Shown here: positions 1 to 52,646 of the stretch, in pieces
How the letters are laid out: every line of letters begins with the position of its first letter
Numbering within the stretch: the stretch's first letter is position 1
Source of the DNA: Escherichia virus TH28
DNA: 55,824 nt
Strand: one strand, 5' to 3'
Sequence record: MT446402.1
Made by a program: the position numbers and the translations under genes
The notes under the pieces: model-generated
Seen by the model: only the letters and a program-made list of their open reading frames with translations
Database searches by the model: none
What the model was told of the DNA's origin: nothing

Positions 1-53
1 TTCGGGGAGATTGCGATATCAACCTGAACTAAATCAGAAATTGGGATTGACAT
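1..53 (-). CDS. tail sheath protein, N-terminal fragment cut by window edge (copy A)
   Basis: Reverse translation of 1-53 gives MSIPISDLVQVDIAISP, the N-terminus of the 482-aa ORF at 50677..52125. Confidence 0.4.
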   Translation of the reverse strand, partial: MSIPISDLVQVDIAISP

Positions 54-56
54 TTA

Positions 57-575
57 TTAAACCTTTTTGGTTGTGATAAGTGTATTACCATCATAGAAGT
101 TGCCACCAACATATGCGCCAGACATGACTCCGATAGGACTCAAATCTTCACGAATAATATTGAATTGCATTCTAACCGCTTGGCGAACTTCCCAATTGGT
201 TTCCATTTGTATGGTGGCAAGATTTAAAGGTTCTTTACCAAGAGCAGCAAACTTCTCCTGCTTCAATTTGGCTTGAACATCGGGACGGTAAAACGAATTA
301 TCAAACTTGATAAATTCATCACCCTCACGAGAAAACATTATTGCAAATGTCAGAATACGAACACCACGAGTACGGAATATCTCTTCGCCATTAATGGTTA
401 CTATTCTGTTCTCGTCAAAACCTGGGTTGGTGCTTGATAAACATTTGATTGCAGCATACTCACCATGGGGTCGGGGAGCGTTAATCTGCATGTTGTATGT
501 AAATTGTGGGATGCCCACACATACATCTACAATCTCTTTCATGGATTGTAGTTCTTCAAGTCTAATATCCATCAC
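57..575 (-). CDS. head-tail joining / tail completion protein (copy A)
   Basis: 172-aa ORF between capsid genes and sheath; near-identical paralogue at 52128..52646. Confidence 0.4.
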   Translation of the reverse strand: MMDIRLEELQSMKEIVDVCVGIPQFTYNMQINAPRPHGEYAAIKCLSSTNPGFDENRIVTINGEEIFRTRGVRILTFAIMFSREGDEFIKFDNSFYRPDVQAKLKQEKFAALGKEPLNLATIQMETNWEVRQAVRMQFNIIREDLSPIGVMSGAYVGGNFYDGNTLITTKKV

Positions 576-988
576 TTCTCCAGTACACGAGCGGCAATTA
601 CAGAGAAGAATCCGGCATCTTCATAATCGTTTATTGCTATAACTTTATACTGAATGCCATAAACAGTGATGATTGATTTCATCGGCATTTCAGTACGACT
701 ATGAATCTTCATAAATGCTGGCTGACGTTCACCAACATCAGTTGCTTTAAGCTGTTGACCAGCTACACCCGAATCCCTGTCACCATATGCAATGGGAGTA
801 CAGCGGAACTTCTTCGGAGGTGCCCAAGAGTCTTCCACCCAATTATTAAGATTGTCATAATGACCTTCTATATATACTGCAAGGGTAGGACGACCAGTGG
901 TTGTGTATTTGTTGAAAGCTAAGCGTTGATTAATCAAAACTGGAACCCAGGACTTAACCTCGGCCCAGCAAATGCCATGCGCCGCCAT
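572..988 (-). CDS. head-tail connector region protein (copy A)
   Basis: 138-aa ORF in structural block; paralogue at 52643..53059 with divergent N-terminus. Confidence 0.4.
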   Translation of the reverse strand: MAAHGICWAEVKSWVPVLINQRLAFNKYTTTGRPTLAVYIEGHYDNLNNWVEDSWAPPKKFRCTPIAYGDRDSGVAGQQLKATDVGERQPAFMKIHSRTEMPMKSIITVYGIQYKVIAINDYEDAGFFSVIAARVLEK

Positions 989-1323
989 TGCAAATAACGT
1001 TGACCGTACACGGTTGACATGAAATCAGCTTCGATATATGGAATAGTCGAAATGATTCGGTCGCTGAACTCTACCTGTACATCGTCCACATCGGTACGAC
1101 TTACAGGCATAGCTGGCATTGCGGCATCACCAGGCATTATGTCGTCAATTGTTGAAGACCAATGCGCGACAAGTGATGCCATAGCTGGGTCATAAAACCC
1201 ACACCAACGCGATTCGATTGTACCCATCACAAGTTTTGCATCTTCAACTAAGATATCAAAACGACCTTGGGTCATGTCAGCCATAGCCGGATAACGTTTC
1301 ACCAAATCGGTCAGTGTAATCAT
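934..1323 (-). CDS. head-tail connector region protein (copy A)
   Basis: 129-aa ORF; paralogue at 53005..53394. Confidence 0.4.
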   Translation of the reverse strand: MITLTDLVKRYPAMADMTQGRFDILVEDAKLVMGTIESRWCGFYDPAMASLVAHWSSTIDDIMPGDAAMPAMPVSRTDVDDVQVEFSDRIISTIPYIEADFMSTVYGQRYLQWRRMAFAGPRLSPGFQF

Positions 1324-1763
1324 TATGCCAACTTATCGTAGAGAGCCAGTTTAACATCTTCCGGCATACCCTTGACGTCAACCCCATTCTTAACAAGGAT
1401 AGCATCAATATCAGGCATACCAACTTTCACGCGTTCAACAATGGAAAGAGAGCCAGCTTTGATTGCTTCTTTGACCAGGTTGACTTTACGAGTTTTACCA
1501 GTGCTGTAATACTCCTTGATGACCAGAGCTTCTTTACCAGTCTTAACAGAAGCGCCGATATTCTCGTCATCAAGCTGAACTACTTCTTCGCGCAGTTCTT
1601 CAACTTCCGTCATGGACTCCGTAAGAGACTTGTAAACTTCATCGTCGATTTCTACAGTTGCGCCACCAGGAACATGAATAAAGTCCAGCTCAGATTTGCC
1701 AGACTTCCCTTTCTTATAGAAGAAGAATTGAAGGTTGCGGGATTCGTTGTTCTTAATCTGCAT
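1323..1763 (-). CDS. head-tail connector region protein (copy A)
   Basis: 146-aa ORF; paralogue at 53395..53835 with many substitutions. Confidence 0.4.
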   Translation of the reverse strand: MQIKNNESRNLQFFFYKKGKSGKSELDFIHVPGGATVEIDDEVYKSLTESMTEVEELREEVVQLDDENIGASVKTGKEALVIKEYYSTGKTRKVNLVKEAIKAGSLSIVERVKVGMPDIDAILVKNGVDVKGMPEDVKLALYDKLA

Positions 1764-1810
1764 TACTATTTCTCTTAAGTTGTGGGCGAGAATAGTCCCG
1801 CCCTGTTTTA

Positions 1811-2818
1811 TTAGATGCCGGAGTTGATGGAGATTGCTGCCGGGTACATCGTTTGGAAGCCAGCGAAACGACCACGGCCAGGTACTTCATAAATCAGGCC
1901 ATGAAGCTGTACTGGTTGCCAGGTCAGCGGCAGAGGCTCACGCAGACGGAAAGTACGGTTGCCCATTGCGTTGCGGCAAACAACTACGAAGCAATCAGAA
2001 CCAGCATTGCCATGACCTTTGATTGCGTTCAGACCCTTGATTTTGTCGCGGGAGTTGATGAACTGGTTGTTGGCAATGAAGAACTGACCAATCGTCTTAT
2101 CAGACTGTTCAGAACGTGCGGTGTTGAAGATGTACTGCTCATGCTCAACAGGCATCCAGATTTCATCAGGGCGCATGATTTTCAGAGTAGAGGCATACAT
2201 TGCAGACACAGCAGCAGTCAGGTCGGCGATAACTTCGGTCGGAGTCTTCTCGGTCCACTTAGTAGAACCGCCAGCACCCTGAGCAACAGTTGCTTTGGTA
2301 ATGTCTGGGTTTTCGAAGAAGCCAACGAAGCCGTTAGCCTGGTCGCCGTACCATGCAGCAGAGTTTACATACTGCTCGTAACCACGAATCGCAGCATTTG
2401 CTTTACGAGTTTCCAGCGGCAGACCAGTTACAGCAGCAGATGCAACTTCGTCAATGTCGTAGTCGAATGCAGTACCAACAGACTTAACTGTTACGCTGTA
2501 TTCTTTACCAGAAATGCTAGACTTAGGCAGGTCAGTTGCACGGGCGTTAATCACCTGAGCTTTACCAACATGGTTGTAAGAACGGTAGGTCAGAGTGTTT
2601 ACGCCAGCACCGCCAGTGGTGTCCACGCCGAAAGCAGCACGCGCTTCCAGTTCAGGGTACAGGGTGTCGTAAGTTTGAGCTTCAATGAACTCAAGCTGGC
2701 GTTGAAAGAATACTGCGTCGTCATCGTTCAGGACAACAGTGCCAGAATCCTGGATACGAGTGATGGCGTCGTTCAGTTCAAATTCAGAACCGTCAGCCAG
2801 TTTAATCATCTTAGGCAT
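1811..2818 (-). CDS. major capsid protein (copy A)
   Basis: 335-aa ORF downstream of portal, protease/scaffold and decoration genes; size fits an HK97-fold capsid protein; paralogue at 53879..54886. Confidence 0.55.
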   Translation of the reverse strand: MPKMIKLADGSEFELNDAITRIQDSGTVVLNDDDAVFFQRQLEFIEAQTYDTLYPELEARAAFGVDTTGGAGVNTLTYRSYNHVGKAQVINARATDLPKSSISGKEYSVTVKSVGTAFDYDIDEVASAAVTGLPLETRKANAAIRGYEQYVNSAAWYGDQANGFVGFFENPDITKATVAQGAGGSTKWTEKTPTEVIADLTAAVSAMYASTLKIMRPDEIWMPVEHEQYIFNTARSEQSDKTIGQFFIANNQFINSRDKIKGLNAIKGHGNAGSDCFVVVCRNAMGNRTFRLREPLPLTWQPVQLHGLIYEVPGRGRFAGFQTMYPAAISINSGI

Positions 2819-2858
2819 TGTGATGTAATTCCATTATGTTGGCATATTGCCATTAAAT

Positions 2859-3203
2859 TTATGCTGTCCACACTTTAGACAGAGATGTACCTGCAACAGA
2901 CGTCCCGTAGGAGTCCTCAATTGTGCAGTTTACAGAGAAAGTTTTGCCAACCTGGTCGGCTGGAGTGGTTCCAGTAATGTGGGCGCGATTTACCGCGTCA
3001 TTTACCAGAGATAACCCACCAGCCCCTTCGGTTTCCATAGCAAACTTATAAATATAACTTCCATCATCTGCTTCTACCACTGCGGCAGGGTCAGTACGGA
3101 TGTAAAAGTCTACAGCTTCACCAGCAGTCAGTACAGCACCGATAGTGTTGCTCCACCCGCTTGTACCATTTGCAGAGTATTGCGTCTGACCGACGGAAGT
3201 CAA
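2859..3203 (-). CDS. Ig-like (Big_2-type) domain protein, probable capsid decoration (copy A)
   Basis: 114-aa Thr/Val/Ala/Gly-rich beta-type sequence between decoration and capsid genes; counterpart 54931..55182 has a different sequence. Confidence 0.4.
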   Translation of the reverse strand: MTSVGQTQYSANGTSGWSNTIGAVLTAGEAVDFYIRTDPAAVVEADDGSYIYKFAMETEGAGGLSLVNDAVNRAHITGTTPADQVGKTFSVNCTIEDSYGTSVAGTSLSKVWTA

Positions 3204-3220
3204 TTTAGCCTTCGGTGTGG

Positions 3221-3691
3221 TTACGCCTTTGGGAGTACGTTAATCATTACTGGAACAACATCACCAGCAGCCGCCGGATAGCGAAGTGCAGTCAGGTTTG
3301 TAGCAGCAGTGTAGGTGCCATCAACGCCACCAAATTGACCAGTGGCAGATACGCCAATGTTCTTGTCAGTGATTGCAGTAACCAGTTTAACCATGATTGG
3401 GCCAGACAGCATACGCCCAGAGGCCAGCCAGCTTTGATTGCAACAGTGCCGTCACCAGGACGGTTGCGATTCGATGTTAATCTGGCGCATAGTAATGCCC
3501 AGAACAGTGCCGTCGGCTTCAATACCAGGCTTAACCTGATTAGAAGCAGTACCCTGAACAACAGCTAAACCAAAGTTAGCCATTTCAGCTTCAGCATTGA
3601 AAGTCAGGCGCTGAGAGTTAGTGGTAGCCAGGCCATATTGCTCACCCGCATATGCTGCACCAGTATTAATAGACCAATCTTGCTTTGGCAT
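3221..3691 (-). pseudogene. head decoration-like protein, disrupted copy (copy A)
   Basis: Intact 157-aa homologue at 55224..55697; here a 2-nt and a 1-nt deletion relative to copy B create an out-of-frame stretch with an in-frame TGA at 3452-3454. Confidence 0.5.
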
Positions 3692-3700
3692 TGTCTTACC

Positions 3701-4942
3701 TTATAAAGAGTTGAAGCGTTCTAAACGACGTTTGTTAGCTTCTTCGGAAATAGAAACTTTAGGCTTACGAGCTTCTGAATCTTTCTTAGCAGAGAATTGC
3801 ATAGATTGGTTCAGTGCATCGCCCAAAGTAATGGAATCACAATCTTCAAGTGCTGCATCGAAACGAGCAGAGATATAATCTTCACTCTTATCGCTGAAAT
3901 CCTTGTCATGCAATTTATTAACTACAGCCAACTTAACTTCTGAATCGGACTTGCCGGAGAAATCAAGACTGGAGAATTCGTCGCCAAGACGGGCCACATC
4001 AATGAGAAGTGCTGTACGAGCAACAACACGTTTGTCTACCTCAGCCTGAATGGCTTCATCGGATAGTCGTGCAGTTTCTGCATCAGCAAGTTTCTGCTCA
4101 AGGGTGCTAATCTTGTCAAGCGCCGCATCACGCTCTGCTTCAACAACATCAAAGGTTGCCTTATCGACAATGGAAATCTCTTCACCAGAGTCACCAATGC
4201 GAGTAGTCTGAGCACGACCACGAACAACAATTGCAGCATGGTTAGGGATAATACGAACTTTGTCGAAGTCTGCATCGGCATCTTCTGCAACAGCCAGTTC
4301 TGCATTATGCCCCAGGGAGATTTGGTCAACGCCAGAATCAACTAATCGAATGGCTTGCTCGTCATTCAAAACGATTGATGCAGCCAAGAAAGAACCGTCT
4401 GCAATTGGACGACCTTCGATGAACCCTTTCTGGAGTTCTTTGTTGTTCTTGATATTGACGTCATCTTTTGGATGGCCGATAGTAACCGGAATTGAGCGAC
4501 AACCTTCGATGGTTGCTTCATCAAATAATACTTCCGGTTTGGTGCGAACACGGCAAACAGATTCTGGGTCTAGATGTTTTGCAATCTCACCAAGTTCTTT
4601 CGCTTTGTACAGCATAATGCCAGTACGAGCAATGGTGCATTCTGCAATCATTTCGCCAGAGTCGCGTAAACGACGGGTCGTCAGAGTAGCCTTGTCGGTT
4701 AACAAAACTACTTCATTCACAGTATCTTCGTCGTTAAGCTGGACCAGGTTTTGGCTTTGCTTCACTTGCGTTACCCTTTTGGATGTTAGGAGGTTTAGGA
4801 TTTGGCTTACCAAGGTCACAAGTTCCGAACACGCCCGAATGGAACATGACTTCATTTGCAACTTGCGTAGTAATGGTGCCGTTGTTAACCAGTAGGTCAA
4901 CAGCAAATGCCAAATCTTTAGCTCGCTTCGCTTTCTCAACAT
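3701..4942 (-). CDS. prohead protease / scaffold-like protein (true start probably near 4740)
   Basis: Acidic, helix-rich 413-aa ORF directly after portal; position typical of protease-scaffold fusions; overlaps portal ORF so an internal start is likely. Confidence 0.45.
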   Translation of the reverse strand: MLRKRSELKIWHLLLTYWLTTAPLLRKLQMKSCSIRACSELVTLVSQILNLLTSKRVTQVKQSQNLVQLNDEDTVNEVVLLTDKATLTTRRLRDSGEMIAECTIARTGIMLYKAKELGEIAKHLDPESVCRVRTKPEVLFDEATIEGCRSIPVTIGHPKDDVNIKNNKELQKGFIEGRPIADGSFLAASIVLNDEQAIRLVDSGVDQISLGHNAELAVAEDADADFDKVRIIPNHAAIVVRGRAQTTRIGDSGEEISIVDKATFDVVEAERDAALDKISTLEQKLADAETARLSDEAIQAEVDKRVVARTALLIDVARLGDEFSSLDFSGKSDSEVKLAVVNKLHDKDFSDKSEDYISARFDAALEDCDSITLGDALNQSMQFSAKKDSEARKPKVSISEEANKRRLERFNSL

Positions 4943-19379: not shown

Positions 19380-19622
19380 TTAGATGGCGCACGCACCACT
19401 TGAACAGTCGTTATCACCAGCACCAGGAACGATTGCTTCTTCGTCCTGCTTCTTCTTGAGTTCTTCGATTGCTTCTTCGGCAGCACCGAAGTCTAGGTTA
19501 TCAAGTGCATCAAAATCCATGAGGACTCCAGTATTGCGGTTATTGGAATGATTGCCAATGTAAGAGTCGAACTTACATAACACCCCGTCGAGTGTCGTCT
19601 TCCCATTTAGACGAATTGGCAT
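19380..19622 (-). CDS. hypothetical acidic protein (internal start of ORF 19380..19658)
   Basis: Annotated ORF start would overlap the tRNA-like element; Met at 19622 avoids overlap. Confidence 0.35.
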   Translation of the reverse strand: MPIRLNGKTTLDGVLCKFDSYIGNHSNNRNTGVLMDFDALDNLDFGAAEEAIEELKKKQDEEAIVPGAGDNDCSSGACAI

Positions 19623-20931: not shown

Positions 20932-21007
20932 TTGTATATACCTTATATTGAATAGTTTTGCACGCCATCATGACGTGACTGTAGATAGATTAAAGAGCCT
21001 TTCTCTT

Positions 21008-21024
21008 TTCACATCCAATTAATG
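21008..21024 (-). promoter_or_regulatory. conserved 17-bp motif (minus strand CATTAATTGGATGTGAA)
   Basis: One of 7 copies of CATTAGTTGGATGTGAA-like motif in gene orientation; 77 nt upstream of 20931 start. Confidence 0.45.
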
Positions 21025-21054
21025 TGTCAGGACTGCTCTGATTTAACAAACAAC

Positions 21055-21729
21055 TCAATACATATTGAATCGTTCGATTGTTTTGATTACCAAATCCTTT
21101 GTCTCAGCGACAGTGAGTTCAGTGATGATTGATTCGTCATAACCCTCAATCTGGATTGCTACAAAACGCCCAACACCTGTTACGGTAAGTCGGTTAGTTC
21201 TGTCACGAACAACTACACCAGCTTCTTGCGCGACTGCTCGCAACAATTTCCAGCGTAAAGTTCGGTTTGGTACAGCAAAGCCCTTTGTCAAGAACAACTC
21301 TTTCATGAGTTCCCCAAGGCAAACAGCTTCAATGTTTTTTCCTCTTCCAACTAATTCTTGCAACAGGCACAGCGTCAACATTTCTAAATTGTTGAAGTGA
21401 CCAGCGCGCTCCAAATTAAAGAACTCTGGAGGAACAGTTGAACGAGATTTAACAGCTTGCTTGTATGCACGTTCTTCTTCCTGTGCAGCAAGCATCAGCA
21501 TCTCTGGCTTAATATATTTCATAGCAGAGAAGCCAGCGCGTGTGGCTTTAATTATGCGACAAGCCTCTTTCATCTTGTAGCGTTGCCACTCACCGCGCTT
21601 CGATTCTGGATTAAAATGGACCCACATAATGATAACATCTTCCTTGGCAAGATAGACGGCATCATTATCATTGAGCCATTGCTTGCACGTCGATAGTGCA
21701 ATCTCTTTGTCATCATCATGATAAGACAT
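21055..21729 (-). CDS. hypothetical protein (internal start of ORF 21055..21786)
   Basis: 243-aa ORF overlaps upstream gene; Met at 21729 removes overlap. Confidence 0.45.
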   Translation of the reverse strand: MSYHDDDKEIALSTCKQWLNDNDAVYLAKEDVIIMWVHFNPESKRGEWQRYKMKEACRIIKATRAGFSAMKYIKPEMLMLAAQEEERAYKQAVKSRSTVPPEFFNLERAGHFNNLEMLTLCLLQELVGRGKNIEAVCLGELMKELFLTKGFAVPNRTLRWKLLRAVAQEAGVVVRDRTNRLTVTGVGRFVAIQIEGYDESIITELTVAETKDLVIKTIERFNMY

Positions 21730-21730
21730 T

Positions 21731-22057
21731 TTAGTGGCCTTGTAGGATACGTTTGTTCGCAGTTTCTGCGTCGATTCCCAAATCAACTAATGTAACCAAG
21801 CACTGCGAAATCCGCTCTTGCGCAGCTTTCTCCAGAATTTGGTATTTTTCGTCGTTAACGCCTAACACATTCTTGGCATGAATGAGTGTAGCCATTAGGC
21901 CATGGCCCAAAGCAACAGCTTGCATTGCCTGGAGTTCAAAGTTGATTGTGATGCCAGCGAGTTCATGCTCTTTCTGGATAATCTCAATCAACTCCTCTTT
22001 CGATTTGTCTTGTAAGTTCAAAATGGAACTCCGTAAGTTGGTTGGTTTGTTGTCCAT
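21731..22057 (-). CDS. hypothetical protein
   Basis: 108-aa ORF. Confidence 0.45.
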   Translation of the reverse strand: MDNKPTNLRSSILNLQDKSKEELIEIIQKEHELAGITINFELQAMQAVALGHGLMATLIHAKNVLGVNDEKYQILEKAAQERISQCLVTLVDLGIDAETANKRILQGH

Positions 22058-22329
22058 TCGCGAGTTGCAATTTGCATGGACTTGTTTGGTCCGAGGTAGA
22101 AGTATTTCTTAACTTCCTCAAGTGTGTATTTAGCACTGCTTCCGAGTATGTCTTTGAAAGTGTGCTTCCAGAACCCATCTTTCTCCGAAATTCCTACGGT
22201 AAAGTCGTTGGTGCCGTTGTACCACCAACGTCCGCCAACCAGGACGAAGTGGATTGTTTCTTCCTCACCTGTGGGAGCTGTTGTTACATTTCTTAATGTC
22301 AAAACTTTAGCAGAATGCTTGCGAATCAT
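22018..22329 (-). CDS. hypothetical protein
   Basis: 103-aa ORF. Confidence 0.45.
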   Translation of the reverse strand: MIRKHSAKVLTLRNVTTAPTGEEETIHFVLVGGRWWYNGTNDFTVGISEKDGFWKHTFKDILGSSAKYTLEEVKKYFYLGPNKSMQIATREWTTNQPTYGVPF

Positions 22330-22964
22330 AGGAACTCTCCAATTTTCGATTCAGTGTTTGTGACTTCTCTTCTCATCTTTTGGCCCAGGAACAGGCCACA
22401 GGGTAGCGCAGGAAGGCCGAAAATCGGGCCACTGCCTACCGTTTGTGTCAATTCTGGATAACTGCATTGGCGAAGGGTTACTCCCGTTAGGGTGCGATAC
22501 GCTAATCACATGAGTGTCGTCGCCATACGGCTCAGGCGTGTCACAGAGGCTTTGCAACCCTTCCCAATACATTCACCCAAATCCCAGCGTTGGCGTAGCT
22601 GGTGGCTCGGTTTTGTGCGGATTATGCCACTCTAAGCCCTGTTTGTCCGACTTTCTCGGAGCACCAGCGACTTGTGGCACAAACCTATTTTCGAATGACT
22701 AACATAAGCATGAGGCATAACCCTCTAATTATTCAGCCCTAACAGCTTGCTTATTTAGTACCAATTCAACCCAATACATCGACCTATAACAAGTGATTAG
22801 CTTCTGCGAAGAAGTATTCTGGCCCTTTGGCCTATGTTAAAAGATAAGTGTATTTGATGGAAACATTCCATCGAAAATAACTTTGTAGAATGAGTTGAAC
22901 ATTCTCGCACGTTATCGGCCGTAACGGTCTACCGAGTTACAAAGTTATTATCTGATGTTGTTTC

Positions 22965-22981
22965 TTCAATTCCAACTAATG
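22965..22981 (-). promoter_or_regulatory. conserved 17-bp motif copy
   Basis: Plus strand TTCAATTCCAACTAATG; part of a roughly 20-bp direct repeat with 23105-23121. Confidence 0.4.
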
Positions 22982-23050
22982 TTTCAGAATTATTCCAATA
23001 TTCCAAACAAAAAGAATAATAAGAATAAATTAAATAAATGAAGAAAGTGC

Positions 23051-23080
23051 TTGACACCCATTTGGCTATAAGTGTATAAT
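23051..23080 (+). promoter_or_regulatory. consensus sigma70-type promoter on the non-coding strand
   Basis: TTGACA (23051-23056), 18-bp spacer, TATAAT (23075-23080), AT-rich upstream; points rightwards, antisense to 23192-23975. Confidence 0.5.
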
Positions 23081-23104
23081 GCCTTTCTTCCCTAAGAGGT
23101 CAGA

Positions 23105-23121
23105 ATCAAATCCCACTAATG
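23105..23121 (-). promoter_or_regulatory. conserved 17-bp motif copy
   Basis: Plus strand ATCAAATCCCACTAATG, directly downstream of the plus-strand sigma70-like promoter. Confidence 0.4.
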
Positions 23122-23191
23122 TTTCAGACTAAAGCCGAAGGCCAATGCGAGTACAAAACCCGCTTGGCACTTCGAAGAAACCCGCCTGGAA

Positions 23192-23395
23192 CTATAGTGT
23201 TTTCCAGTCTGAATCAAACATTACAGTTGGTCGAGTAAAGATTGTTGAAGAATCGGTGCTCAAGAAGGTATGATTCCCATACCGTTTAACTTCCTGATAA
23301 GCAAATCCCTCAATCCACTCTCCGCTGGTGGCTTTAATCTTCGTTGGCCCCAGAATACGGTAATAAGTATTTCTTGGCTGGTGATGAACAATCAT
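23192..23395 (-). CDS. DUF1653-like small protein (internal start)
   Basis: YYRILG ... YQ ... RPTVMF resembles DUF1653 family pattern by recollection. Confidence 0.35.
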   Translation of the reverse strand: MIVHHQPRNTYYRILGPTKIKATSGEWIEGFAYQEVKRYGNHTFLSTDSSTIFTRPTVMFDSDWKTL

Positions 23396-23408
23396 CTCAG
23401 CTTCGATT

Positions 23409-23975
23409 TCAGATGTTTTCAAGCTGCGCACGAAACAATACCCCATTTGAGAAGATGAAGTCTGAACCATAATCGTGAACAAACTTCTCCCAATCAATGT
23501 AGTTCAGTAAATTATCAGGAATGCCATACGAATCGCTTTCCTGTCGGAAATACTGCTCCATAGAGTCAAATTCTCCGATATACGCATCAAGCAAATTAAC
23601 TTCTTGATAGAAGATATCAATTTCATCACTGTCGTATGCAGCCATGATAATTTCTTCACTAACTTCTGTCAGCAAATTGTTATAATGGTCGTAGCGAGTG
23701 CGACTAAAGACACCTTTAATAAAGCAGAGCTTGGTTACGCTGTCATCATCTGATTCGATAATGTCATACGTGCCGGTTTCAGGGAATTCGATTCCGTATT
23801 CTTCATGCAGATACTCCTGCATATTGAAGTCATAGAGCCGCCATGCCAGACCATCAATCCAAACATCTTCAAATTCAGAGTTGTTTTCGCCTGTGTAGAA
23901 ACGAACCAATAAGGTTTCATCTCTACGCCAGGACTTAAGTTGTTCCACTGCTTTAGTAATGTTATCGTTTTGCAT
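23409..23975 (-). CDS. ardA: ArdA-like antirestriction protein
   Basis: Highly acidic; C-terminal block LLNYIDWEKFVHDYGSDFIFSNGVLF matches the conserved ArdA C-terminus (NYID..SG.F....G.F) as I recall it. Confidence 0.6.
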   Translation of the reverse strand: MQNDNITKAVEQLKSWRRDETLLVRFYTGENNSEFEDVWIDGLAWRLYDFNMQEYLHEEYGIEFPETGTYDIIESDDDSVTKLCFIKGVFSRTRYDHYNNLLTEVSEEIIMAAYDSDEIDIFYQEVNLLDAYIGEFDSMEQYFRQESDSYGIPDNLLNYIDWEKFVHDYGSDFIFSNGVLFRAQLENI

Positions 23976-24252
23976 TAAGTTTCTCCCACATACCTTGAAG
24001 TTCCATGTTAAGGATTTTGAGCTGTTCAATTCGCCCTTTCCCGCCCTTTACTAGTATGTCCAGGATGGCGGTCTTCTCTTCATATGTTACTAGATAACAG
24101 CATCTGCCAACCTCAATTTCGTGTCTCAGACTACGGGAATCTTGCACATGATTTGACAAATGTTGGTGGAGTTCTGCCTCTGCACGAGACGTACGCTCCT
24201 GCATACGCTCTAATTCTTTCGGTATTTCCTGATATTCCATCGGATACTCCAT
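23962..24252 (-). CDS. hypothetical protein
   Basis: 96-aa ORF, charged and helical. Confidence 0.4.
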   Translation of the reverse strand: MEYPMEYQEIPKELERMQERTSRAEAELHQHLSNHVQDSRSLRHEIEVGRCCYLVTYEEKTAILDILVKGGKGRIEQLKILNMELQGMWEKLNAKR

Positions 24253-24260
24253 TGATGAAG

Positions 24261-24656
24261 TTATGCTGGAAGTTCGAAGTGCGGTGCGTCGAGGAATTTA
24301 GCCCATTTCACTGGCTTAGTGAATGAACGTTCCCATGTTCCACCCCAACGAATAACAATTCCAAGCTCCTCTGCGGCTTTGAACATGTGTTCAGCTACAA
24401 TTTGGAATCGTTCAAGGTCATTCCAGTCAATTGGGTATGGTGCAATGTCCAAAGCGTTGCCTGACATGTGTCGGCTAATAGAAACTTTGGTTGCACCCTG
24501 CTTTAAAAGCTCTTGTTGACGTTCATAAGAGCGTAAACCTTCCAAAACAGTTACATCAAAAGGCATGGTTTCACATGCCCGTTTGAAAACTGCAACTAAT
24601 GAAGGATTTACTCCCTTAAGTCGGTCTAAAGAACGTTGGCCGAGCTTAACATTCAT
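24261..24656 (-). CDS. peptidase M15 family (L-alanyl-D-glutamate peptidase-like) peptidoglycan hydrolase
   Basis: Zn-ligand motifs SRHMSGNALD and C-terminal HFE; 131 aa. Confidence 0.65.
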   Translation of the reverse strand: MNVKLGQRSLDRLKGVNPSLVAVFKRACETMPFDVTVLEGLRSYERQQELLKQGATKVSISRHMSGNALDIAPYPIDWNDLERFQIVAEHMFKAAEELGIVIRWGGTWERSFTKPVKWAKFLDAPHFELPA

Positions 24657-24931
24657 TATTTACCCTTTAATGCATCGTTTAAAGTGTTGTTCAACAGTGT
24701 GTTGAGTTCATCAAGCTCGTCAAATGCTGCCTGAGCTTTGTTAACTTCGTCAACAAGTAGTGCTCGAAGGACTGCATGCTCAACAAGCACCCATCCGTTA
24801 ATACAGTCGATGAAAACTTTAACTTTATCAACTGGAGCATTTAAATCAAAGGCCGACAAGTCGGATTTGGCATTGTCCAACTTTCCTTTTGCCTTACTTA
24901 GTTCAACAGGAACTTGGTCTATAGAAATCAT
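24656..24931 (-). CDS. hypothetical protein
   Basis: 91-aa ORF. Confidence 0.4.
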   Translation of the reverse strand: MISIDQVPVELSKAKGKLDNAKSDLSAFDLNAPVDKVKVFIDCINGWVLVEHAVLRALLVDEVNKAQAAFDELDELNTLLNNTLNDALKGK

Positions 24932-25161
24932 TGAAAATTATTTCCACTAGGGTGAATGGTTAATTTGAAGGATACTAATTCCCTATTGATTGAGGTTGTT
25001 CCTAGAACTGTTGCCTCAAACAACATGGATTTGGAAGTTTCCTTACCTACACGTTCCAAGTATTTTACAACTCGGTCGTGAATTACTGCCCATTGGCGAT
25101 ATTCGCAATCGGATTCCAGCAGGTATTGAACTCCATCAATGGTAAATTCGGATGACGTCAT
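24928..25161 (-). CDS. hypothetical protein
   Basis: 77-aa ORF. Confidence 0.4.
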   Translation of the reverse strand: MTSSEFTIDGVQYLLESDCEYRQWAVIHDRVVKYLERVGKETSKSMLFEATVLGTTSINRELVSFKLTIHPSGNNFQ

Positions 25162-27026: not shown

Positions 27027-27043
27027 CTCACATCCAACTAATG
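27027..27043 (-). promoter_or_regulatory. conserved 17-bp motif copy
   Basis: Plus strand CTCACATCCAACTAATG; 73 nt upstream of 26954 start. Confidence 0.45.
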
Positions 27044-27202
27044 TTGAATTAATCAGGAACACTCAATGAATGCTCCTTGTTAATTTAACGCGCCAGTTTA
27101 TATTCCTGCTTGTAATAGCAGCAGGTTGGCAAAGCCTATAACAATCGTAATTATAACAACGCTAATAGTAAGTGTCAGTATTAGGTATTTAATATTCAAT
27201 CC

Positions 27203-31255: not shown

Positions 31256-33370
31256 TTATTGACAGAAGTAGTAAGCGTGTTCGCTCATCAGAAGCTCTTC
31301 GGTTACGATGTTCTCATGATACATCTGAATGCCACCAAGTTGCTTAGACAGATTCTCGAATTGATTGTTGGTTACGAAGATTTCAACATATGCTGCACGA
31401 ATAACTTCCATCATTTTAGGAGCATCAGCTAAGCAGCAACGGAAACAATCATGGATTGAAGTAAAGCCACGAAGACCAGCTTCTTTAGCTTTGACTGCAA
31501 CAGTACGAGCAACCAATGCGTCAATACCTTGAATGTAGTTAACAACGAAGGTACGTTTGAATTCCTCTTTAGTTGGATTGGACTCACGAATGGTCCAAGG
31601 CTTATTCTCCTGAATCTGACCAAAGATGACACGAGTTTGAGAGTCAACACGAATGCTGAATGCATCACAAACATCACGAGATGGGAAGCAAGGTTTCATT
31701 ACAACTTGACCATCAGTGTGCTTATATGTGATGTACTCTTTGTTGAGTTCAACACAACGAGCAAATGCAGCATCAGCAGCTTTCTCGATGAACATGTTAA
31801 TCTTAGCACCCAATGCGTTATGGATTGCTTCAACACAAAGTTCAGCAAATGCTTCGGCTTTCTCCATAGGAATCTGGAGAGCTTCTGTCATGTATGCGGT
31901 GAAATCAGAAGAACCAGTCAATGCAGCTTTACCACCACCATATTGGATAGCCATGTATGGAGTTTTGATAAACTTACGACCAGCTTTCGGATTCAAGAAT
32001 TCATCCATAATTTCAGCGGATGGTTTCATTGAAGAACGGTCAAGCAACTTCAACAGTTCACGAAGAGATAACTGGTATGGGTCAGATGCTTTAGTCTCAG
32101 AATCAACCAGACCTGTAGCACGAGCCATTTCCATGTTACCAGCAATGAATGCCAAGTATTGGGTACCAGAACATTTAGCATCTAAGCCAAAGCCTACACG
32201 AGAATCACACTCACCTGTAGTCTCAAACTTGAACCAATCCAGAGCCAGACGAACATAAGTGAATGGCTTAGAAGGACGCTCACCTTTAGGCATGTTCAGC
32301 ATACGAGCCAAAGAACCAGCAGGATTCTGTGCAACATAAGTTAAACGTTTTGCAGAAGTCCAGTCTCCACCAGCAATATCTTCCAGCTCAAGCATGAACA
32401 TGTTGTATGCCAGAGTTGTTGAGCCATCATCATTAAACTTGCTCACAGTGTTCTCAACATTGTGGGAATACAGGCAACGAGCAAAGTCGGATGATTGTGG
32501 GTTAGGACCAGCACATGCTACATGATACAAACGACCACGGTTATCAGCAAAGTAGTCAGAGAACAGAGTGTCCTGCCCAACCATTGCTACAGCATTGTTC
32601 CAAACATGGAGTTCAGTCTGGATTGCTTCTGGCATCTGTAAGCCACCAAAGGTACGTTGTTCTAACATGGAAGAGATAACCTTAACCATTGTTGCATCAA
32701 CGTGATATTCAGTATCTTGCAGGAATTCGATTGCAGCTTTCAGAGTCTTGGATGGCTTAACTTTGCCACCTTTAACGAAAGGCTTGCGACGAGATTCAGT
32801 TGTTACACGCTCAGTGAATGGAACTGAGGTATCTTTGGTTGTAACCAGCTCAACCCATGCATCAGTCATCTGGAACGATTTGTCCTCGTTCATGGTGATG
32901 AAACCGAAGTGCTTAGCTAAACCAATGAGGTTGATAGCTGGGTCAACATAGTGCATTGCTTTCAGGTCGTTGTTATAACGGTTGGCATCAGCAATAGAAG
33001 CAGAAGCCAGCTCGACCATTGCAATGGCTGGGACAACATCATCACGAGTGAATGACGTCATCATCTTGAAGATTGCAAGAGCAGCAATAGCACAGGTCTG
33101 AGGCTGCATGTAATTCTGTTTCTCTTTGGCACGGTATACCAGAGCCGTGATAGCAGGGACAACGGATTTGATAGTTTGAGTTGAGATAGTTGTCATTTTG
33201 CGAGTCTCCAAGTTAGTTTCGGTTTTAGTTTCGGATTGTGTAGCAGCAGTGATTTCGTCAACCATTTGGTTGCAACGGTCCATCGTATCAAGCACGTCTT
33301 TCCAACCGTGGCCTTCTTCTTTTAAGCGAGCGCCATCAGCAGCCAGTGCGCGATATTCTTCGTTAGTCAT
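31256..33370 (-). CDS. single-subunit DNA-dependent RNA polymerase (T7-like)
   Basis: Motifs DNRGRLY, DAKCSGTQY (motif A), RKFIKTPYMAIQYGGG (motif B), IHDCF (motif C) match T7 RNAP; 704 aa. Confidence 0.85.
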   Translation of the reverse strand: MTNEEYRALAADGARLKEEGHGWKDVLDTMDRCNQMVDEITAATQSETKTETNLETRKMTTISTQTIKSVVPAITALVYRAKEKQNYMQPQTCAIAALAIFKMMTSFTRDDVVPAIAMVELASASIADANRYNNDLKAMHYVDPAINLIGLAKHFGFITMNEDKSFQMTDAWVELVTTKDTSVPFTERVTTESRRKPFVKGGKVKPSKTLKAAIEFLQDTEYHVDATMVKVISSMLEQRTFGGLQMPEAIQTELHVWNNAVAMVGQDTLFSDYFADNRGRLYHVACAGPNPQSSDFARCLYSHNVENTVSKFNDDGSTTLAYNMFMLELEDIAGGDWTSAKRLTYVAQNPAGSLARMLNMPKGERPSKPFTYVRLALDWFKFETTGECDSRVGFGLDAKCSGTQYLAFIAGNMEMARATGLVDSETKASDPYQLSLRELLKLLDRSSMKPSAEIMDEFLNPKAGRKFIKTPYMAIQYGGGKAALTGSSDFTAYMTEALQIPMEKAEAFAELCVEAIHNALGAKINMFIEKAADAAFARCVELNKEYITYKHTDGQVVMKPCFPSRDVCDAFSIRVDSQTRVIFGQIQENKPWTIRESNPTKEEFKRTFVVNYIQGIDALVARTVAVKAKEAGLRGFTSIHDCFRCCLADAPKMMEVIRAAYVEIFVTNNQFENLSKQLGGIQMYHENIVTEELLMSEHAYYFCQ

Positions 33371-33499: not shown

Positions 33500-33960
33500 C
33501 CACTACCTAACTTGGTGTTGATTGAAAGCCGATAGGCTATAGGAAAAAGTTGGGGTAGGGACCGTATTTAAGTCCGATAGGACGTTGGGCTTCCCCTCCT
33601 CGGAGATAAAATTTTAAAAATAATAATGACACAACTTCCCCCCCCCCCCGCCACCTCAAAAATAAAATAATATCGCCACAATTCTAGTCTCATTAATATT
33701 GAAACAATTCGAGTCTCATTAATTCCGTAGCAATATTTAAATTAAAAAAAAAAAAATTATATAAAATTTTTATAACATAGTCGGGCTTCTGTTCGAACAA
33801 ATTTCGGCTAGATACAGCTGACCGATTGTGAACGAGTCTATGTCCAGATACAGTTGACCGATCATTTACCATTTGGTTTGAACTTTACGCATTCCTAATA
33901 TTACTTTAAATATTGTAGCAATATTGGGAATAAGTAATATTGAAAACTTACTTATTTTAT
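33500..33960. other. repeat- and homopolymer-rich intergenic region (candidate genome end, origin or packaging region)
   Basis: C12 at 33638-33649, A13 at 33744-33756, direct repeats CAGATACAG(C/T)TGACCGAT at 33811 and 33844, AGTCTCATTAAT at 33687 and 33711, CAATATT-type motifs. Confidence 0.45.
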
Positions 33961-50676: not shown

Positions 50677-52125
50677 TTACTGAATGAAGTTGCCAGAGAT
50701 TACAGCACCCTGGATTGCACCGGAACCGATAGCAATAAAGGAAGTACCTTCCCAAATACGTTCACCCTTCTGCGACTGCAAGAGTTCTAACGGAGTAGAA
50801 ATAACTTTGTAGCCTTCTGGATAGAAGACGCCTTCGTTATCATAGCCAGGGGCAATGAGGCCGTTAGTCTTAGCGAGTTCGAGCGCCAGGGTTACTTGCT
50901 GGTTAACCATTGCTACACCAGTGTCCGTCCAAGGAATCTTGGTAGTGGAGGTGTAGAACAAGTTGAACACGTTCAGTCGAACTTTCTGAGTCAGCCATTC
51001 AACACCTTGTACGGAGTCGAACCATGTGCCGTCAGCCATACGACCGTTGTAGAACATTACGTTGCCAGCAACAGAAATGAATGCGTTACCACCACAAGAA
51101 AGCAGCGCACTTACCTGCCCAGAAGACAGGTCAGCAGTGGCGATACCTGGACCTTTCTTGTATGCCAGAATAAGAACAGAGTTTGCAACGTTAAAGTTAA
51201 CAGTTGATGCACGACCCAGGATAGAAATTTCCGGATATTCATCACCATTCGCAGAAGCATCGTAAACACACAGAGTGTTACGCAGGTTCTGGTTCTTAGC
51301 ACGACGGAAGCTGTTATCAGTGCCGTTGATAAGAATGTTCTTGTCGTTATCACCCCAGCCAAATACTTTGCTGGATGCTTCACACCACTTCGCCACAGAC
51401 ATTTGGTTGTCTACTGGAGAGGTTTTGCCACGATACTGGCGGTCAAGGCCCACATAGAAGAAGTTGAATGGAGCATCTGCAATATTAGACAAGTCGGAAG
51501 AAATGGATAGCTCGTTCTTACCAGCAACAATAACTGCGCTGTCAGAAGATTGCAGTTTCAGTACTTCACCAACTTTACCACCAACGTTGCTGATAGTTGC
51601 GTTGATGCCAGTTGCAGAAGTGGTCAGCTTGAACTTGCCAGCTTCCTGAGTAACAGTTACGCCAGCACCAACAGAAGATAGTGCAGTAGTTACTAGAGTT
51701 GCAACTTCTTCGAAGTCAGCAGCAGCAGAGAAATCAATCGGGTCAGTAACATACTGAACACCGCTAACACTTAACTGCATGGTTGCAGCAGTTTCCAGCT
51801 TAATGGTTGCCAATACAGCAGCAGTTGCAGCAGTAACAGTGGCAGGAGTTGCTGGAGTCAAAGTATCGTACTTGATAGCACCAACCAGGAAAGTCTTCGG
51901 AGTTGGCTTCTGCGAGTACCAAGAGGTAGCAGCTTTAGCAATCTCACCACCAGGGAAGTCTGCGAGAACTTCTTTCAAACTGGTATAGGAACGAACCGGA
52001 TATACATCAACGGTCGGTACAAACTCTTTGCTCATAAAGAGCAATGGCCCAAAACCATCGGTCGCAATGGCGTTCGGGGAGATTGCGATATCAACCTGAA
52101 CTAAATCAGAAATTGGGATTGACAT
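50677..52125 (-). CDS. tail sheath protein
   Basis: 482 aa immediately upstream of tube gene; size and position fit Mu/P2-type sheath. Confidence 0.5.
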   Translation of the reverse strand: MSIPISDLVQVDIAISPNAIATDGFGPLLFMSKEFVPTVDVYPVRSYTSLKEVLADFPGGEIAKAATSWYSQKPTPKTFLVGAIKYDTLTPATPATVTAATAAVLATIKLETAATMQLSVSGVQYVTDPIDFSAAADFEEVATLVTTALSSVGAGVTVTQEAGKFKLTTSATGINATISNVGGKVGEVLKLQSSDSAVIVAGKNELSISSDLSNIADAPFNFFYVGLDRQYRGKTSPVDNQMSVAKWCEASSKVFGWGDNDKNILINGTDNSFRRAKNQNLRNTLCVYDASANGDEYPEISILGRASTVNFNVANSVLILAYKKGPGIATADLSSGQVSALLSCGGNAFISVAGNVMFYNGRMADGTWFDSVQGVEWLTQKVRLNVFNLFYTSTTKIPWTDTGVAMVNQQVTLALELAKTNGLIAPGYDNEGVFYPEGYKVISTPLELLQSQKGERIWEGTSFIAIGSGAIQGAVISGNFIQ

Positions 52126-52127
52126 TA

Positions 52128-52646
52128 TTAAACCTTTTTGGTTGTGATAAGTGTATTACCATCATAGAAGTTGCCACCAACATATGCGCCAGACATGACT
52201 CCGATAGGACTCAAATCTTCACGAATAACATTGAATTGCATTTTAACCGCTTGGCGAACTTCCCAATTGGTTTCCATTTGTATGGTGGCAAGATTTAAAG
52301 GTTCTTTACCAAGAGCAGCAAACTTCTCCTGCTTCAATTTGGCTTGAACATCGGGACGGTAAAACGAATTATCAAACTTGATAAATTCATCACCCTCACG
52401 AGAAAACATTATTGCAAATGTCAGAATACGAACACCACGAGTACGGAATATCTCTTCGCCATTAATGGTTACTATTCTGTTCTCGTCAAAACCTGGGTTG
52501 GTGCTTGATAAACATTTGATTGCAGCATACTCACCATGGGGTCGGGGAGCGTTAATCTGCATGTTGTATGTAAATTGTGGGATGCCCACACATACATCTA
52601 CAATCTCTTTCATGGATTGTAGTTCTTCAAGTCTAATATCCATCAC
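52128..52646 (-). CDS. head-tail joining / tail completion protein (copy B)
   Basis: 172 aa; 2 substitutions relative to 57..575. Confidence 0.45.
   Translation of the reverse strand: MMDIRLEELQSMKEIVDVCVGIPQFTYNMQINAPRPHGEYAAIKCLSSTNPGFDENRIVTINGEEIFRTRGVRILTFAIMFSREGDEFIKFDNSFYRPDVQAKLKQEKFAALGKEPLNLATIQMETNWEVRQAVKMQFNVIREDLSPIGVMSGAYVGGNFYDGNTLITTKKV

Follow-up and report, generated by a model that had tools for sequence, protein, structure and literature searches.

Between two putative phage-polymerase promoters of Escherichia virus TH28, we found a perfect sigma-70 promoter site on the strand that carries no genes, conserved at its recognition elements in six genus-level lineages of Chaseviridae and facing one of these phage promoters head-on. 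This site is very likely a real regulatory element. We give a probability of about 0.4 to the reading that it would be a genuine host-polymerase promoter, set head-on to the first middle promoter at the early/middle boundary and acting through convergent transcription together with a non-coding antisense RNA. The window, by which we mean the whole 55.8-kb stretch of DNA analyzed, comes from a phage of the genus Carltongylesvirus (Chaseviridae) whose T7-like RNA polymerase is encoded by ORF 31256-33370 (Pfam RNA_pol, E = 2e-19), and every gene in it lies on the minus strand. The features discussed are collected in Table 1.

Table 1. Positions of the sigma-70 site and surrounding features in the window
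Feature	Position	Strand	Remarks
Structured RNA, conserved	22696..22759	-	Downstream of promoter 5, in the same hub; from covariation
Putative phage-RNA-polymerase promoter 5, core CATTAGTTGG at 22972-22981	22966..22987	-	Annotated in phiEcoM-GJ1 and SA91KD; repeat family D7; divergent (back-to-back) to the sigma-70 site
19-mer ATTATTCCAATATTCCAAA, two tandem TTGGAATA units on the coding strand	22989..23007		Directly upstream of promoter 5; identical in four genera
A+T-rich region upstream of the -35 hexamer, AAGAATAA-type repeats	23008..23050	+	Repeats read from the sequence
-35 hexamer TTGACA, sigma-70 type	23051..23056	+	6/6 match; invariant in 12 Carltongylesvirus phages and five further genus-level lineages
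18-nt spacer CCCATTTGGCTATAAGTG	23057..23074	+	Length kept, sequence variable
-10 hexamer TATAAT	23075..23080	+	6/6 match; next base always G
Predicted start window (T, C, T, T)	23086..23089	+	6-9 nt past the -10 hexamer, from promoter geometry
Putative phage-RNA-polymerase promoter 4, core CATTAGTGGG at 23112-23121	23106..23127	-	Annotated in phiEcoM-GJ1 and SA91KD; repeat family D7; convergent (head-on) to the sigma-70 site
Strong hairpin followed by GCUUUAGU	23136..23174	-	Directly 3' of the small-gene stop codon; candidate terminator of the ardA-small gene block
Small gene, homologue of phiEcoM-GJ1 gp23	23192..23431	-	ORF 23192-23497; GJ1 homologue annotated as a 240-nt gene; no Pfam match
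ArdA-like antirestriction gene	23409..23954	-	Pfam ArdA E = 5e-4, below the gathering score

The first-pass annotation had pointed to a near-perfect promoter with an A+T-rich upstream element, and both parts of this description hold. TTGACA-18 nt-TATAAT at 23051-23080 is the sole 12/12 sigma-70 site on either strand of the window, with the runner-up being an 11/12 match at 27178-27150 (-), and the 45 nt 5' of the -35 hexamer are 82% A+T (67-87% in the other genera). Possible roles of this A+T-rich region are those of an UP element, a segment where the DNA unwinds or an array of protein-binding sites. Both hexamers match at all six positions, and the spacer falls within the 16-18 nt range of sigma-70 promoters, whose optimum is 17 nt. 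The geometry also agrees with the start near 23087 that had been proposed, but the start window holds pyrimidines throughout, so a transcript beginning near 23087 would start with C or T. A purine 6-9 nt past the -10 hexamer is a preference of sigma-70 promoters and no absolute requirement; in four of the six genera, a purine is found 7 nt past this hexamer. From base composition, 0.047 12/12 sites are expected per window, and 9 of 300 shuffles contained one, so that the site taken from one genome alone reaches only about p = 0.03-0.05. It is conservation across genera that makes the case decisive.

We compared the site in six lineages: Carltongylesvirus (12 phages), Sabourvirus 4HA13, Faunusvirus, Aeromonas phage phiA050, Suwonvirus PP101 and Myducvirus. 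The hexamers, their spacing and the following G are invariant in all six, with an 18-nt spacer in this phage and the five other genera and a 17-nt spacer in a single strain, PYps23T. Conservation is selective for the recognition elements, since all 12 hexamer columns are invariant versus 2 of 18 in the spacer and 4 of 60 in the flanks (2 of 30 upstream, 2 of 30 downstream). Mean pairwise identity is 46% for the spacer and 40-46% for spacer and flanks overall, and ArdA is ~35% identical between these genera. Within Carltongylesvirus-type phages, the intergenic gap carrying the site is 87-96% identical and the ArdA proteins ~60%. The placement is constant as well: in each genus, the site is found on the non-coding strand, within the gap that immediately follows ardA, the small gene and their terminator hairpin. 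Thus, the promoter is genuine in the evolutionary sense, its hexamers and spacing having stayed the same while its neighbors diverged. According to the ICTV profile, promoters of this family have not yet been identified (PMC12842549), and the site is unannotated between promoters 4 and 5 in the records of both phiEcoM-GJ1 (NC_010106) and SA91KD.

Outside these six lineages, the site changes or is missing. Loessnervirus-type genomes keep both hexamers, as TTGACG and TAAAAT, at a spacing of 8 nt, which is 10 bp shorter, falls outside the 16-18 nt range and can be used by no sigma-70 holoenzyme. The mismatches and the short spacer would look like relaxed selection after loss of the promoter, although recent decay would not fully explain why the hexamers are retained at this spacing. 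For Nefertitivirinae, no site of at least 11/12 is present on either strand in the first 20 kb of Vibrio phage VPs20. In four genera, a dyad symmetry extends across the spacer and the inner hexamer ends, with symmetrical changes on both arms, which hints at a binding protein or a hairpin; as a universal operator or hairpin it was rejected, being missing from PP101 and Myduc. A candidate DnaA box, TTATACACT, was dropped because inspection by eye showed it overlapping the -10 hexamer in this genus only. The endolysin was too widespread to serve as an anchor protein.

The flanking repeats TCAATTCCAACTAATGTTTCAGA (22966-22988) and TCAAATCCCACTAATGTTTCAGA (23106-23128) share 21 of 23 positions at a separation of 140 nt, and two copies of the 17-bp motif do bracket the promoter. 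They do not belong to it but are minus-strand putative phage promoters that read in the opposite direction, annotated as putative phage promoters 4 and 5 in phiEcoM-GJ1 (GenBank NC_010106, Jamalludeen et al. 2008). The core motif occurs 18 times in comparison with 4.1 expected, 14 of the 18 copies being on the coding strand. An over-represented motif of ~20 nt on the coding strand of a phage encoding its own polymerase is what promoters of a T7-like enzyme would look like; promoter function remains putative. The 19-mer ATTATTCCAATATTCCAAA next to promoter 5 belongs to another motif family, CCAATATTS, with seven copies versus 1.03 expected. In all six genera, the phage promoter core facing the sigma-70 site begins 28-45 nt past the -10 hexamer (~115 nt in Loessnervirus), giving a conserved, short-range arrangement of facing promoters. 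Among the phage promoters of the four genomes compared, promoter 4 alone has a strong convergent sigma-70 partner, and a general tendency of phage promoters to face sigma-70 sites was thus rejected. The Carltongylesvirus promoter after the polymerase gene faces a 10/12 site, which is within background.

The site and both phage promoters lie in a conserved non-coding hub of 619 bp (22573-23191). On the minus strand, 23100-23200 folds with -37.9 kcal/mol (z = -4.5), and the hairpin at 23136-23174 is annotated as a rho-independent terminator in SA91KD, with equivalents on the minus strand in 4HA13. The label "DUF1653-like" given earlier to one of the neighboring genes was not confirmed, the ORF having no Pfam match at E <= 0.01, and "ArdA-like" stands in part: relatives of this protein are annotated as antirestriction proteins, while the Pfam match itself is weak. 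We infer that the ardA-small gene block is early and transcribed by the host enzyme, in which case the hub would follow the early block of ardA and the gp23-like gene and precede the genes read by the phage T7-like polymerase. No tRNA was found at the sigma-70 site, the sole tRNA call of the search being at 19552-19621. No known RNA family matched the window at gathering thresholds, and permissive thresholds gave only noise (E >= 2) over 22300-23400.

The same hub holds a new covarying RNA structure at 22696-22759 (-), in which 96.7% of cells are paired, 11 of 20 pairs show compensatory changes and none of 500 shuffles was as good. A covariance model was used across genera, where a MAFFT alignment misplaced the 3' half. 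Covariance-model and pattern searches found no copy in the 7.3-kb locus of phiEcoM-GJ1, and the first 20 kb of Vibrio phage VPs20 had no match. In IMG/VR, the 16-nt core matches at least 120 stretches; of 76 new loci examined there, the model supports five at E <= 1e-6, all on contigs of ~52-57 kb. This element may be functionally untied to the sigma-70 site. As the hub brings together a candidate terminator, a pair of phage promoters, arrays of repeats and this structured RNA, it is an obvious place in which to seek the origin and the timing controls of the family.

How could the two facing promoters work together? Very tight binding of the sigma-70 holoenzyme to the perfect consensus and to the A+T-rich DNA upstream of it would lead to a start at ~23087 and to rightward elongation, which would cross the start of promoter 4 within 22-39 nt (~27 nt in this genome) and then the early terminator hairpin and the small-gene 3' end. 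Since the sigma-70 transcript crosses the oppositely oriented promoter 4, the two form a head-on pair for two different polymerases. As long as the host polymerase is active, its open and elongation complexes would stand in the way of promoter 4 transcription over its first few nucleotides, and outgoing complexes would also collide with host polymerase reading through the early terminator. When phage polymerase has become abundant, or host polymerase has been switched off, promoter 4 would fire through and silence the sigma-70 site. A by-product would be a non-coding antisense RNA able to pair with the promoter 4 leader, with the terminator and with the small-gene 3' end, and it could add RNase III-type duplex processing. 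The sequence comparisons establish the site itself, its unmatched strength in the window, its selective conservation, its constant placement and its head-on geometry; that it fires in vivo, and whether interference or the antisense RNA is the effect under selection, are matters of inference. Precedents exist: convergent promoters at helD in Bacillus subtilis act as a switch that reads polymerase activity (PMC12802891), and in Escherichia coli sigma-70 promoters as well as T7 promoters have been shown to cause interference (PMC4889929).

Several observations count against this head-on model. The start window is all pyrimidine in this genome, and the 18-nt spacer is one over the optimum. The distance to promoter 4 varies (28-45 nt, ~115 nt in Loessnervirus), which argues against pure steric occlusion and leaves collision-type interference alone. 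Moreover, promoter 5, which lies beyond the site in Carltongylesvirus, would bypass a gate at promoter 4, Loessnervirus-type hexamers are retained at an unusable spacing, and the spacer dyad of four genera is a feature that the model does not need. A stronger version, in which the pair forms a two-polymerase toggle, is doubtful. Here, a parked or firing sigma-70 holoenzyme would shut the first middle promoter, and phage polymerase or host shut-off would flip the switch, so that the phage would time its early-to-middle transition by host-polymerase activity and might link this to origin opening in the A+T-rich repeats alongside.

Among known pairs of facing promoters that work through transcriptional interference are pR/pL of coliphage 186 and Pant/Psar of P22. 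These pairs and the helD/anti-helD rifampicin alarm of B. subtilis (PMC12802891) resemble the arrangement described here in the separation of the facing starts by a few tens of nucleotides, in the great strength of one partner and in the conservation of the pairing. At helD/anti-helD, the balance of the two promoters reports RNA polymerase activity. What differs in Chaseviridae is that two different enzymes are predicted to be involved, the host sigma-70 holoenzyme and a phage single-subunit polymerase. In the literature searched, we found no natural head-on pair of this cross-polymerase type, and we know of none.

The selected product could instead be a discrete cis-antisense RNA like lambda oop or P22 sar, a plus-strand RNA that would alter stability or translation by pairing either with the promoter 4 leader or with the 3' part of the early mRNA, in the small gene and perhaps in ardA; we regard this as unlikely. 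The promoter is conserved and, as first described, lies on the non-coding strand, where there are only short ORFs, and rightward transcription would run antisense to the small gene and then ardA. By its geometry, the predicted RNA overlaps, with full complementarity, the promoter 4 leader, the terminator hairpin and the small-gene 3' end; the leader (~22-39 nt of overlap across genera) and the hairpin are met first. Lambda oop is likewise made from a constitutive host-type promoter opposite to the main phage transcription and near the replication region, and is antisense to the 3' end of the upstream gene. The oop RNA is short and of defined length with its own terminator, however, and no conserved terminator was found at the sigma-70 site. 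Across genera, neither a conserved plus-strand ORF nor a conserved terminator appears downstream of it, and the first 30 transcribed nucleotides are ~40% identical. Carltongylesvirus alone has weak plus-strand hairpins with U-rich tails at +181 to +197 (23267-23283) and at about +222 to +245. Pairing in the first is kept through G-U pairs valid on the plus strand only, in four apparently independent variants and one double change, but these hairpins sit in a protein-coding region and the G-U asymmetry reaches only p ~0.06. On one metagenomic contig (L045), the degenerate sigma-70 site is immediately followed by the best match to a phage promoter that the non-coding strand contains, which suggests that antisense transcription itself has been kept there. 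The specific proposal of the first-pass annotation, an antisense or small RNA controlling the antirestriction gene, is not supported: there is no conserved plus-strand intrinsic terminator, ardA starts ~320 nt downstream, out of reach of any shorter plus-strand transcript, nothing marks it as the target, and ArdA and the antisense RNA would both be early products of one polymerase. A plus-strand small protein was also rejected. In 5 of 12 related phages, a 1-nt indel disrupts the two ORFs past the promoter (23119-23238 and 23145-23273), and a "PAWNY" peptide likeness between genera lies in differing frames relative to the available ATGs.

It is also rather improbable that the site serves as part of a replication origin, in which host transcription from here and phage transcription from promoters 4 and 5 would open or prime the A+T-rich repeats, as at the T7 primary origin or at T4 origins, where a promoter beside an unwinding element makes an R-loop primer. 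The T7 primary origin, with phi1.1A/phi1.1B and an A+T-rich segment, is located at ~15% from the left end and, to our knowledge, contains no host promoter. Our hub shares with it the tandem phage promoters, the A+T-rich segment, a similar fractional distance from the left end and a T7-like polymerase, and differs in having a host promoter and, in two genera, no second phage promoter beside the site. Promoter 4 reads into the 67-87% A+T segment, which the tandem promoters flank and which carries TTATTCC, GGAATAA and AAGAATAA direct and inverted repeats together with the 19-mer. The sigma-70 site and promoter 5 stand back-to-back over this segment and would concentrate negative supercoiling in it. 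The hub lies ~10.5 kb (~19%) from the physical left end, as placed by terminal-repeat notes at the RNA polymerase gene and by end mapping in PYps23T (PMC8762354). Against an origin, no inflection of GC or AT skew was seen at 23 kb, in profiles that say little about where DNA synthesis begins. Moreover, the sigma-70 site and promoter 4 are retained in PP101 and Myduc, where neither a promoter 5 nor the 19-mer lies beside them, so the tandem promoter pair is not conserved with the A+T-rich segment. Thus, the divergent arrangement and the repeats are not universal, while the head-on pair is.

Very unlikely is a host-polymerase sink or roadblock with no productive role, either a decoy that multiplies along with the genome copies or a barrier guarding the hub. 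By general promoter kinetics, perfect hexamers with an 18-nt spacer and a pyrimidine start would favor tight binding over fast escape, and the genome's strongest site does lie on a gene-free strand; yet one site per genome would be a weak sink, and the strictly conserved head-on placement by promoter 4 would go unexplained. A chance match or functionless by-product of A+T richness, for which one can cite a 12/12 site in ~3% of shuffled windows, is effectively refuted by 12 hexamer positions and a spacing identical in six genera amid 40-46% identity nearby.

The head-on reading bears on how this family hands transcription over from the host enzyme to its own. Phages of the Chaseviridae have contractile-tail virions and also encode a T7-like RNA polymerase, and their perfect sigma-70 site, on a gene-free strand, is aimed at the first phage promoter past what appears to be the early block. 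If this reading is true, the pair would be a compact natural case of regulation by head-on transcription of two unrelated polymerases. It would inform the host-to-phage transcription handover in phages that are candidates for biocontrol and therapy against E. coli, Yersinia, Erwinia and Pectobacterium, and would offer a design for synthetic circuits.

A sigma-70 promoter made up of TTGACA, an 18-nt spacer and TATAAT occupies 23051-23080 on the plus strand, exactly as the first-pass annotation had described; nowhere else in the 55.8-kb window, on either strand, is there another 12/12 match. A+T content reaches 82% in the 45 nt upstream. The match alone is just mildly surprising, because 0.047 such sites are expected per window from base composition and one turns up in 9 of 300 shuffled windows. 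The next-best match in the window-wide scan (11/12) lies on the coding strand at 27178-27150. It consists of CTGACA, 17 nt and TATAAT, carries a TG extension, is preceded by A+T-rich DNA and sits ~100 nt upstream of the 27028-27049 phage promoter; it is a candidate for a genuine early or host promoter. The 23051-23080 site is not annotated in the phiEcoM-GJ1 and SA91KD records, and a passing mention in the phiEcoM-GJ1 or Y2 genome papers is possible. Nine phage promoters and a single sigma-70-like one, the latter upstream of the polymerase gene, are reportedly given in the phiEcoM-GJ1 abstract.

Across 21000-25000 (4 kb), the genome matches Escherichia virus TH23 at 100% identity, compared with 82-92% for phiEcoM-GJ1, ST32, MLP1, Mangalitsa and Yersinia PYps phages, all placed in Chaseviridae, Cleopatravirinae, Carltongylesvirus. 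The site lies in a 619-bp gap without credible genes (22573-23191, here called the hub), which is 87-96% identical in 41 phage records, while ArdA is just ~60% identical among the same phages. Both hexamers are invariant in all 12 aligned Carltongylesvirus-type phages, with the spacer variable at ~6 positions and 17 nt long in one strain, PYps23T. The string TTGACA-18 nt-TATAAT-G also occurs in Sabourvirus 4HA13, Faunusvirus Faunus, Aeromonas phage phiA050, Suwonvirus PP101 and Myducvirus Myduc, in each on the non-coding strand of the gap directly downstream of ardA and the small gene. Among these six genus-level sequences, all 12 hexamer columns are invariant, compared with 2 of 18 in the spacer, 2 of 30 upstream and 2 of 30 downstream; outside the hexamers the sequences share 40-46% pairwise identity, and ArdA is ~35% identical between the genera. 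On this comparison, selection is acting on exactly what sigma-70 holoenzyme recognises, the two hexamers and the distance between them. We take such cross-genus conservation as the decisive evidence, far stronger than the single-genome match, and judge 23051-23080 to be a functional host-polymerase site with a probability of about 0.9; a chance match, tolerable for one genome, is extremely improbable for six genera. No site of at least 11/12 was found in the first 20 kb of the Nefertitivirinae Vibrio phage VPs20.

A dyad symmetry spans the spacer and inner hexamer ends at 23053-23078, with equivalents in comparison loci L012, L013, L014 and L008. Its arms change symmetrically between lineages (ACAGAAT/ATTCTGT in 4HA13, ACAGAT/ATCTGT in Faunus, ACACAT/ATGTGT in phiA050, ACCAAT/ATTGGT in PYps23T); it measures just 4 bp in the window and is missing from PP101 and Myduc. 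The symmetry could represent an operator or a hairpin.

The exception is a Loessnervirus-type group, SSEM1, Papaline, Y2 and metagenomic contig L045 (L024, L025, L089 and L045), in which TTGAC(A/G) and TA(T/A)AAT stand 8 nt apart, a spacing unusable by sigma-70 holoenzyme. Their spacers are 10 bp shorter than in the 18-nt lineages and variable in sequence. A hexamer mismatch (TTGACG, TAAAAT) is found in two of the four genomes and in none of the 18-nt lineages, which fits relaxed selection after a deletion but does not fully account for the survival of both hexamers. SSEM1 and Papaline show an extended -10 motif (TGn), which Y2 and L045 lack. In L045, the top non-coding-strand match to a phage-promoter weight matrix in a 13.5-kb scan, modest in score, directly follows the degenerate site. 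This may hint that antisense transcription is itself the conserved property; no such match was seen in the other three genomes.

The two motif copies that the first-pass annotation saw bracketing the site are borne out: they lie at 22966-22988 and 23106-23128, 140 nt apart, and match at 21 of 23 positions. The window holds seven members of this family (21009, 22966, 23106, 27028, 30272, 31123 and 33434), which share the coding-strand core (A)CATTAGTTGGA(T/A)(G/T)TGA. The phiEcoM-GJ1 record labels the two copies "putative phage promoter 5" and "putative phage promoter 4", an annotation copied in the SA91KD record. With up to one mismatch, the 10-nt core occurs 18 times (4.1 expected; reached in 0 of 100 shuffles), 14 of them on the coding strand. 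Given this annotation, over-representation and strand bias, the copies are best read as putative phage-polymerase promoters pointing leftward in window coordinates. Chaseviridae promoters are still to be identified according to the ICTV profile (PMC12842549), and full-text searches of the literature turned up neither a transcriptome nor a mapped promoter or origin for any family member.

Features of the hub and its surroundings, elements 1 to 10 in coding-strand order
Element	Feature	Position	Strand	Remarks
1	ardA-like gene	23954-23409	-	ORF 23412-24029
2	small gp23-like gene	~23431-23192	-	ORF 23195-23497
3	strong hairpin, then GCUUUAGU	23174-23136	-	fold z = -4.5
4	phage promoter 4	23127-23106	-	start near 23114
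5	sigma-70 -10 and -35 hexamers	23075-23080; 23051-23056	+	opposite strand
6	A+T-rich stretch with AAGAATAA and TTATTCC repeats
7	19-mer	23007-22989		identical in four genera
8	phage promoter 5	22987-22966	-
9	~390 nt of conserved hairpin-rich sequence			includes structured RNA 22759-22696
10	small ORFs
	CCAATATT(C/G) copies	22995, 30479, 30555, 31178, 33919; also 11091, 40513
	insertions at promoter 5	L003 1112-1232; L002 3692-3812; L005 1111-1282; L004 1109-1416		coordinates of comparison loci

In ST32, SA91KD, Mangalitsa and PYps16N, extra segments of ~120-310 bp are inserted exactly at promoter 5 (relative to window 22965-22982). Since these inserts are bordered by duplicated promoter core, phage promoters seem to act as module boundaries in recombination. 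A separate motif, CCAATATT(C/G), is present in seven copies (1.03 expected; none of 100 shuffles reached this count). Five lie in early-region intergenic DNA adjoining phage promoters, frequently in the form of tandem or inverted TGGAATAT-like units, and the motif may be a binding site for an unknown regulator.

Only one feature goes with the sigma-70 site in all genera, namely a phage promoter core on the opposite strand, which begins 28, 32, 37, 37, 45 or 45 nt after the -10 hexamer in the six genera, and thus the facing start sites would be ~22-39 nt apart. Promoter 5 and the 19-mer are missing beside the site in PP101 and Myduc, and no strong convergent sigma-70 partner was found at other phage promoters in four genomes. 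We tentatively favour a cis-acting role for this head-on pair. Host polymerase bound at or leaving the perfect promoter would block the fragile first nucleotides of promoter 4 transcription and would also collide with read-through from the putative early terminator, the hairpin whose equivalent in the SA91KD record is labelled a terminator; later, phage-polymerase transcription across the site would extinguish it. Convergent promoters turn polymerase activity into a switch at helD of B. subtilis (PMC12802891), and in E. coli sigma-70 and T7 promoters have each been demonstrated to cause interference (PMC4889929).

The predicted plus-strand transcript would be non-coding: in 5 of 12 phages a 1-nt indel interrupts the two short ORFs after the site. 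It would be complementary first to the promoter 4 leader, then to the terminator hairpin, then to the 3' end of the small gene, reaching ardA only beyond ~+320. No intrinsic terminator on this strand is conserved across genera. Carltongylesvirus has a 6-bp hairpin with a U-rich tail at +181 to +197 (23267-23283), its pairing kept through plus-strand-only G-U pairs in four apparently independent variants and one double change, and a second at ~+222 to +245 (about 23308-23331). Both lie within the small gene, with weak statistical support (~p = 0.06), and are possible 3' ends of an antisense RNA in this genus only. Rho-dependent termination is also possible, the plus strand downstream being only mildly C-rich over G. 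A defined antisense RNA is an unlikely alternative to the cis-acting role of the head-on pair. The proposal that such an RNA controls the antirestriction gene drew no particular support: ardA is the third element downstream, linked by proximity alone. The first-pass observation itself thus holds, and its interpretation is borne out in part. The ORF called DUF1653-like had no Pfam match at E <= 0.01; the ArdA-like one matches Pfam ArdA (E = 5e-4), below the gathering score. In several GenBank records, the ArdA homologue is labelled "tail fiber protein".

Opening or priming of a replication origin is about as doubtful as an antisense RNA; in its favour, the hub, like a T7 origin, combines phage promoters with an A+T-rich repeat segment. 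That the site is a polymerase sink is improbable.

Further along the coding strand, 22696-22759 folds into a three-way junction composed of a 12-bp closing helix, a 4-bp hairpin (AGCU-GUUAG-GGCU), the invariant single strand GAAUAAUUA and a variable hairpin, with the invariant core AGCUGUUAGGGCUGAAUAAUUA. Folded alone, six of nine lineages show the same architecture, the coding strand always being the stabler of the two. A covariance model was built from six sequences in three genera, namely four Carltongylesvirus phages, 4HA13 and phiA050. It picked up Myduc (E = 3e-8), SSEM1 (6e-8), Faunus (3e-5) and Papaline (0.014), with a single coding-strand copy in each. At least seven Cleopatravirinae lineages have the element, at one copy per genome. 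PP101 has the core sequence but gave no model hit at E <= 1, and covariance-model and pattern searches of the 7.3-kb phiEcoM-GJ1 locus did not find the element. In an alignment fitted to the model, 96.7% of cells pair, compared with 33-39% with partners slid 1-3 columns, and 11 of 20 pairs show compensatory changes on both sides (0 of 500 shuffles as good). Among the IMG/VR loci fetched, model support is confined to contigs of ~52-57 kb. The element has no Rfam match and looks like a new phage RNA motif, possibly a leader element; in Myduc it ends ~10 nt ahead of a ribosome-binding site. It may have no functional tie to the sigma-70 site.

The annotated genes of related records all lie on a single strand, the minus strand of the window, including a T7-like RNA polymerase gene (ORF 31256-33370; Pfam RNA_pol, E = 2e-19). 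The Mangalitsa, 4HA13 and Myduc records carry PhageTerm repeat notes that place the physical left end just upstream of this gene, in agreement with the experimentally mapped end of PYps23T (PMC8762354). Near this expected end, non-coding minus-strand DNA upstream of the polymerase gene (33620-33800) has a ~13-T run, a ~12-G run and repeated "aattaatgagact(c/a)gaattgt" units. Window 1-3767 and 52073-55824 are mutual direct repeats spanning ORFs distant from the polymerase gene, with some blocks just 79-93% identical in ungapped comparison. A physical terminal repeat is ruled out here, since the PhageTerm notes put it at the polymerase gene; the imperfect repeats suggest wrap-around or mixed-strain assembly. 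At 19552-19621 on the minus strand, ARAGORN calls a tRNA with undetermined anticodon, and in the matching region, upstream of the gp30 homologue, the phiEcoM-GJ1 record has a tRNA-Arg that "may contain an intron".

With the left end upstream of the polymerase gene, the hub lies ~10.5 kb (19%) from it, at a point where early genes read by the host polymerase seem to give way to later genes read by the phage enzyme. The sigma-70 element is deeply conserved, unannotated in the records examined, and belongs to known kinds of element, the antisense promoter and the convergent promoter pair.
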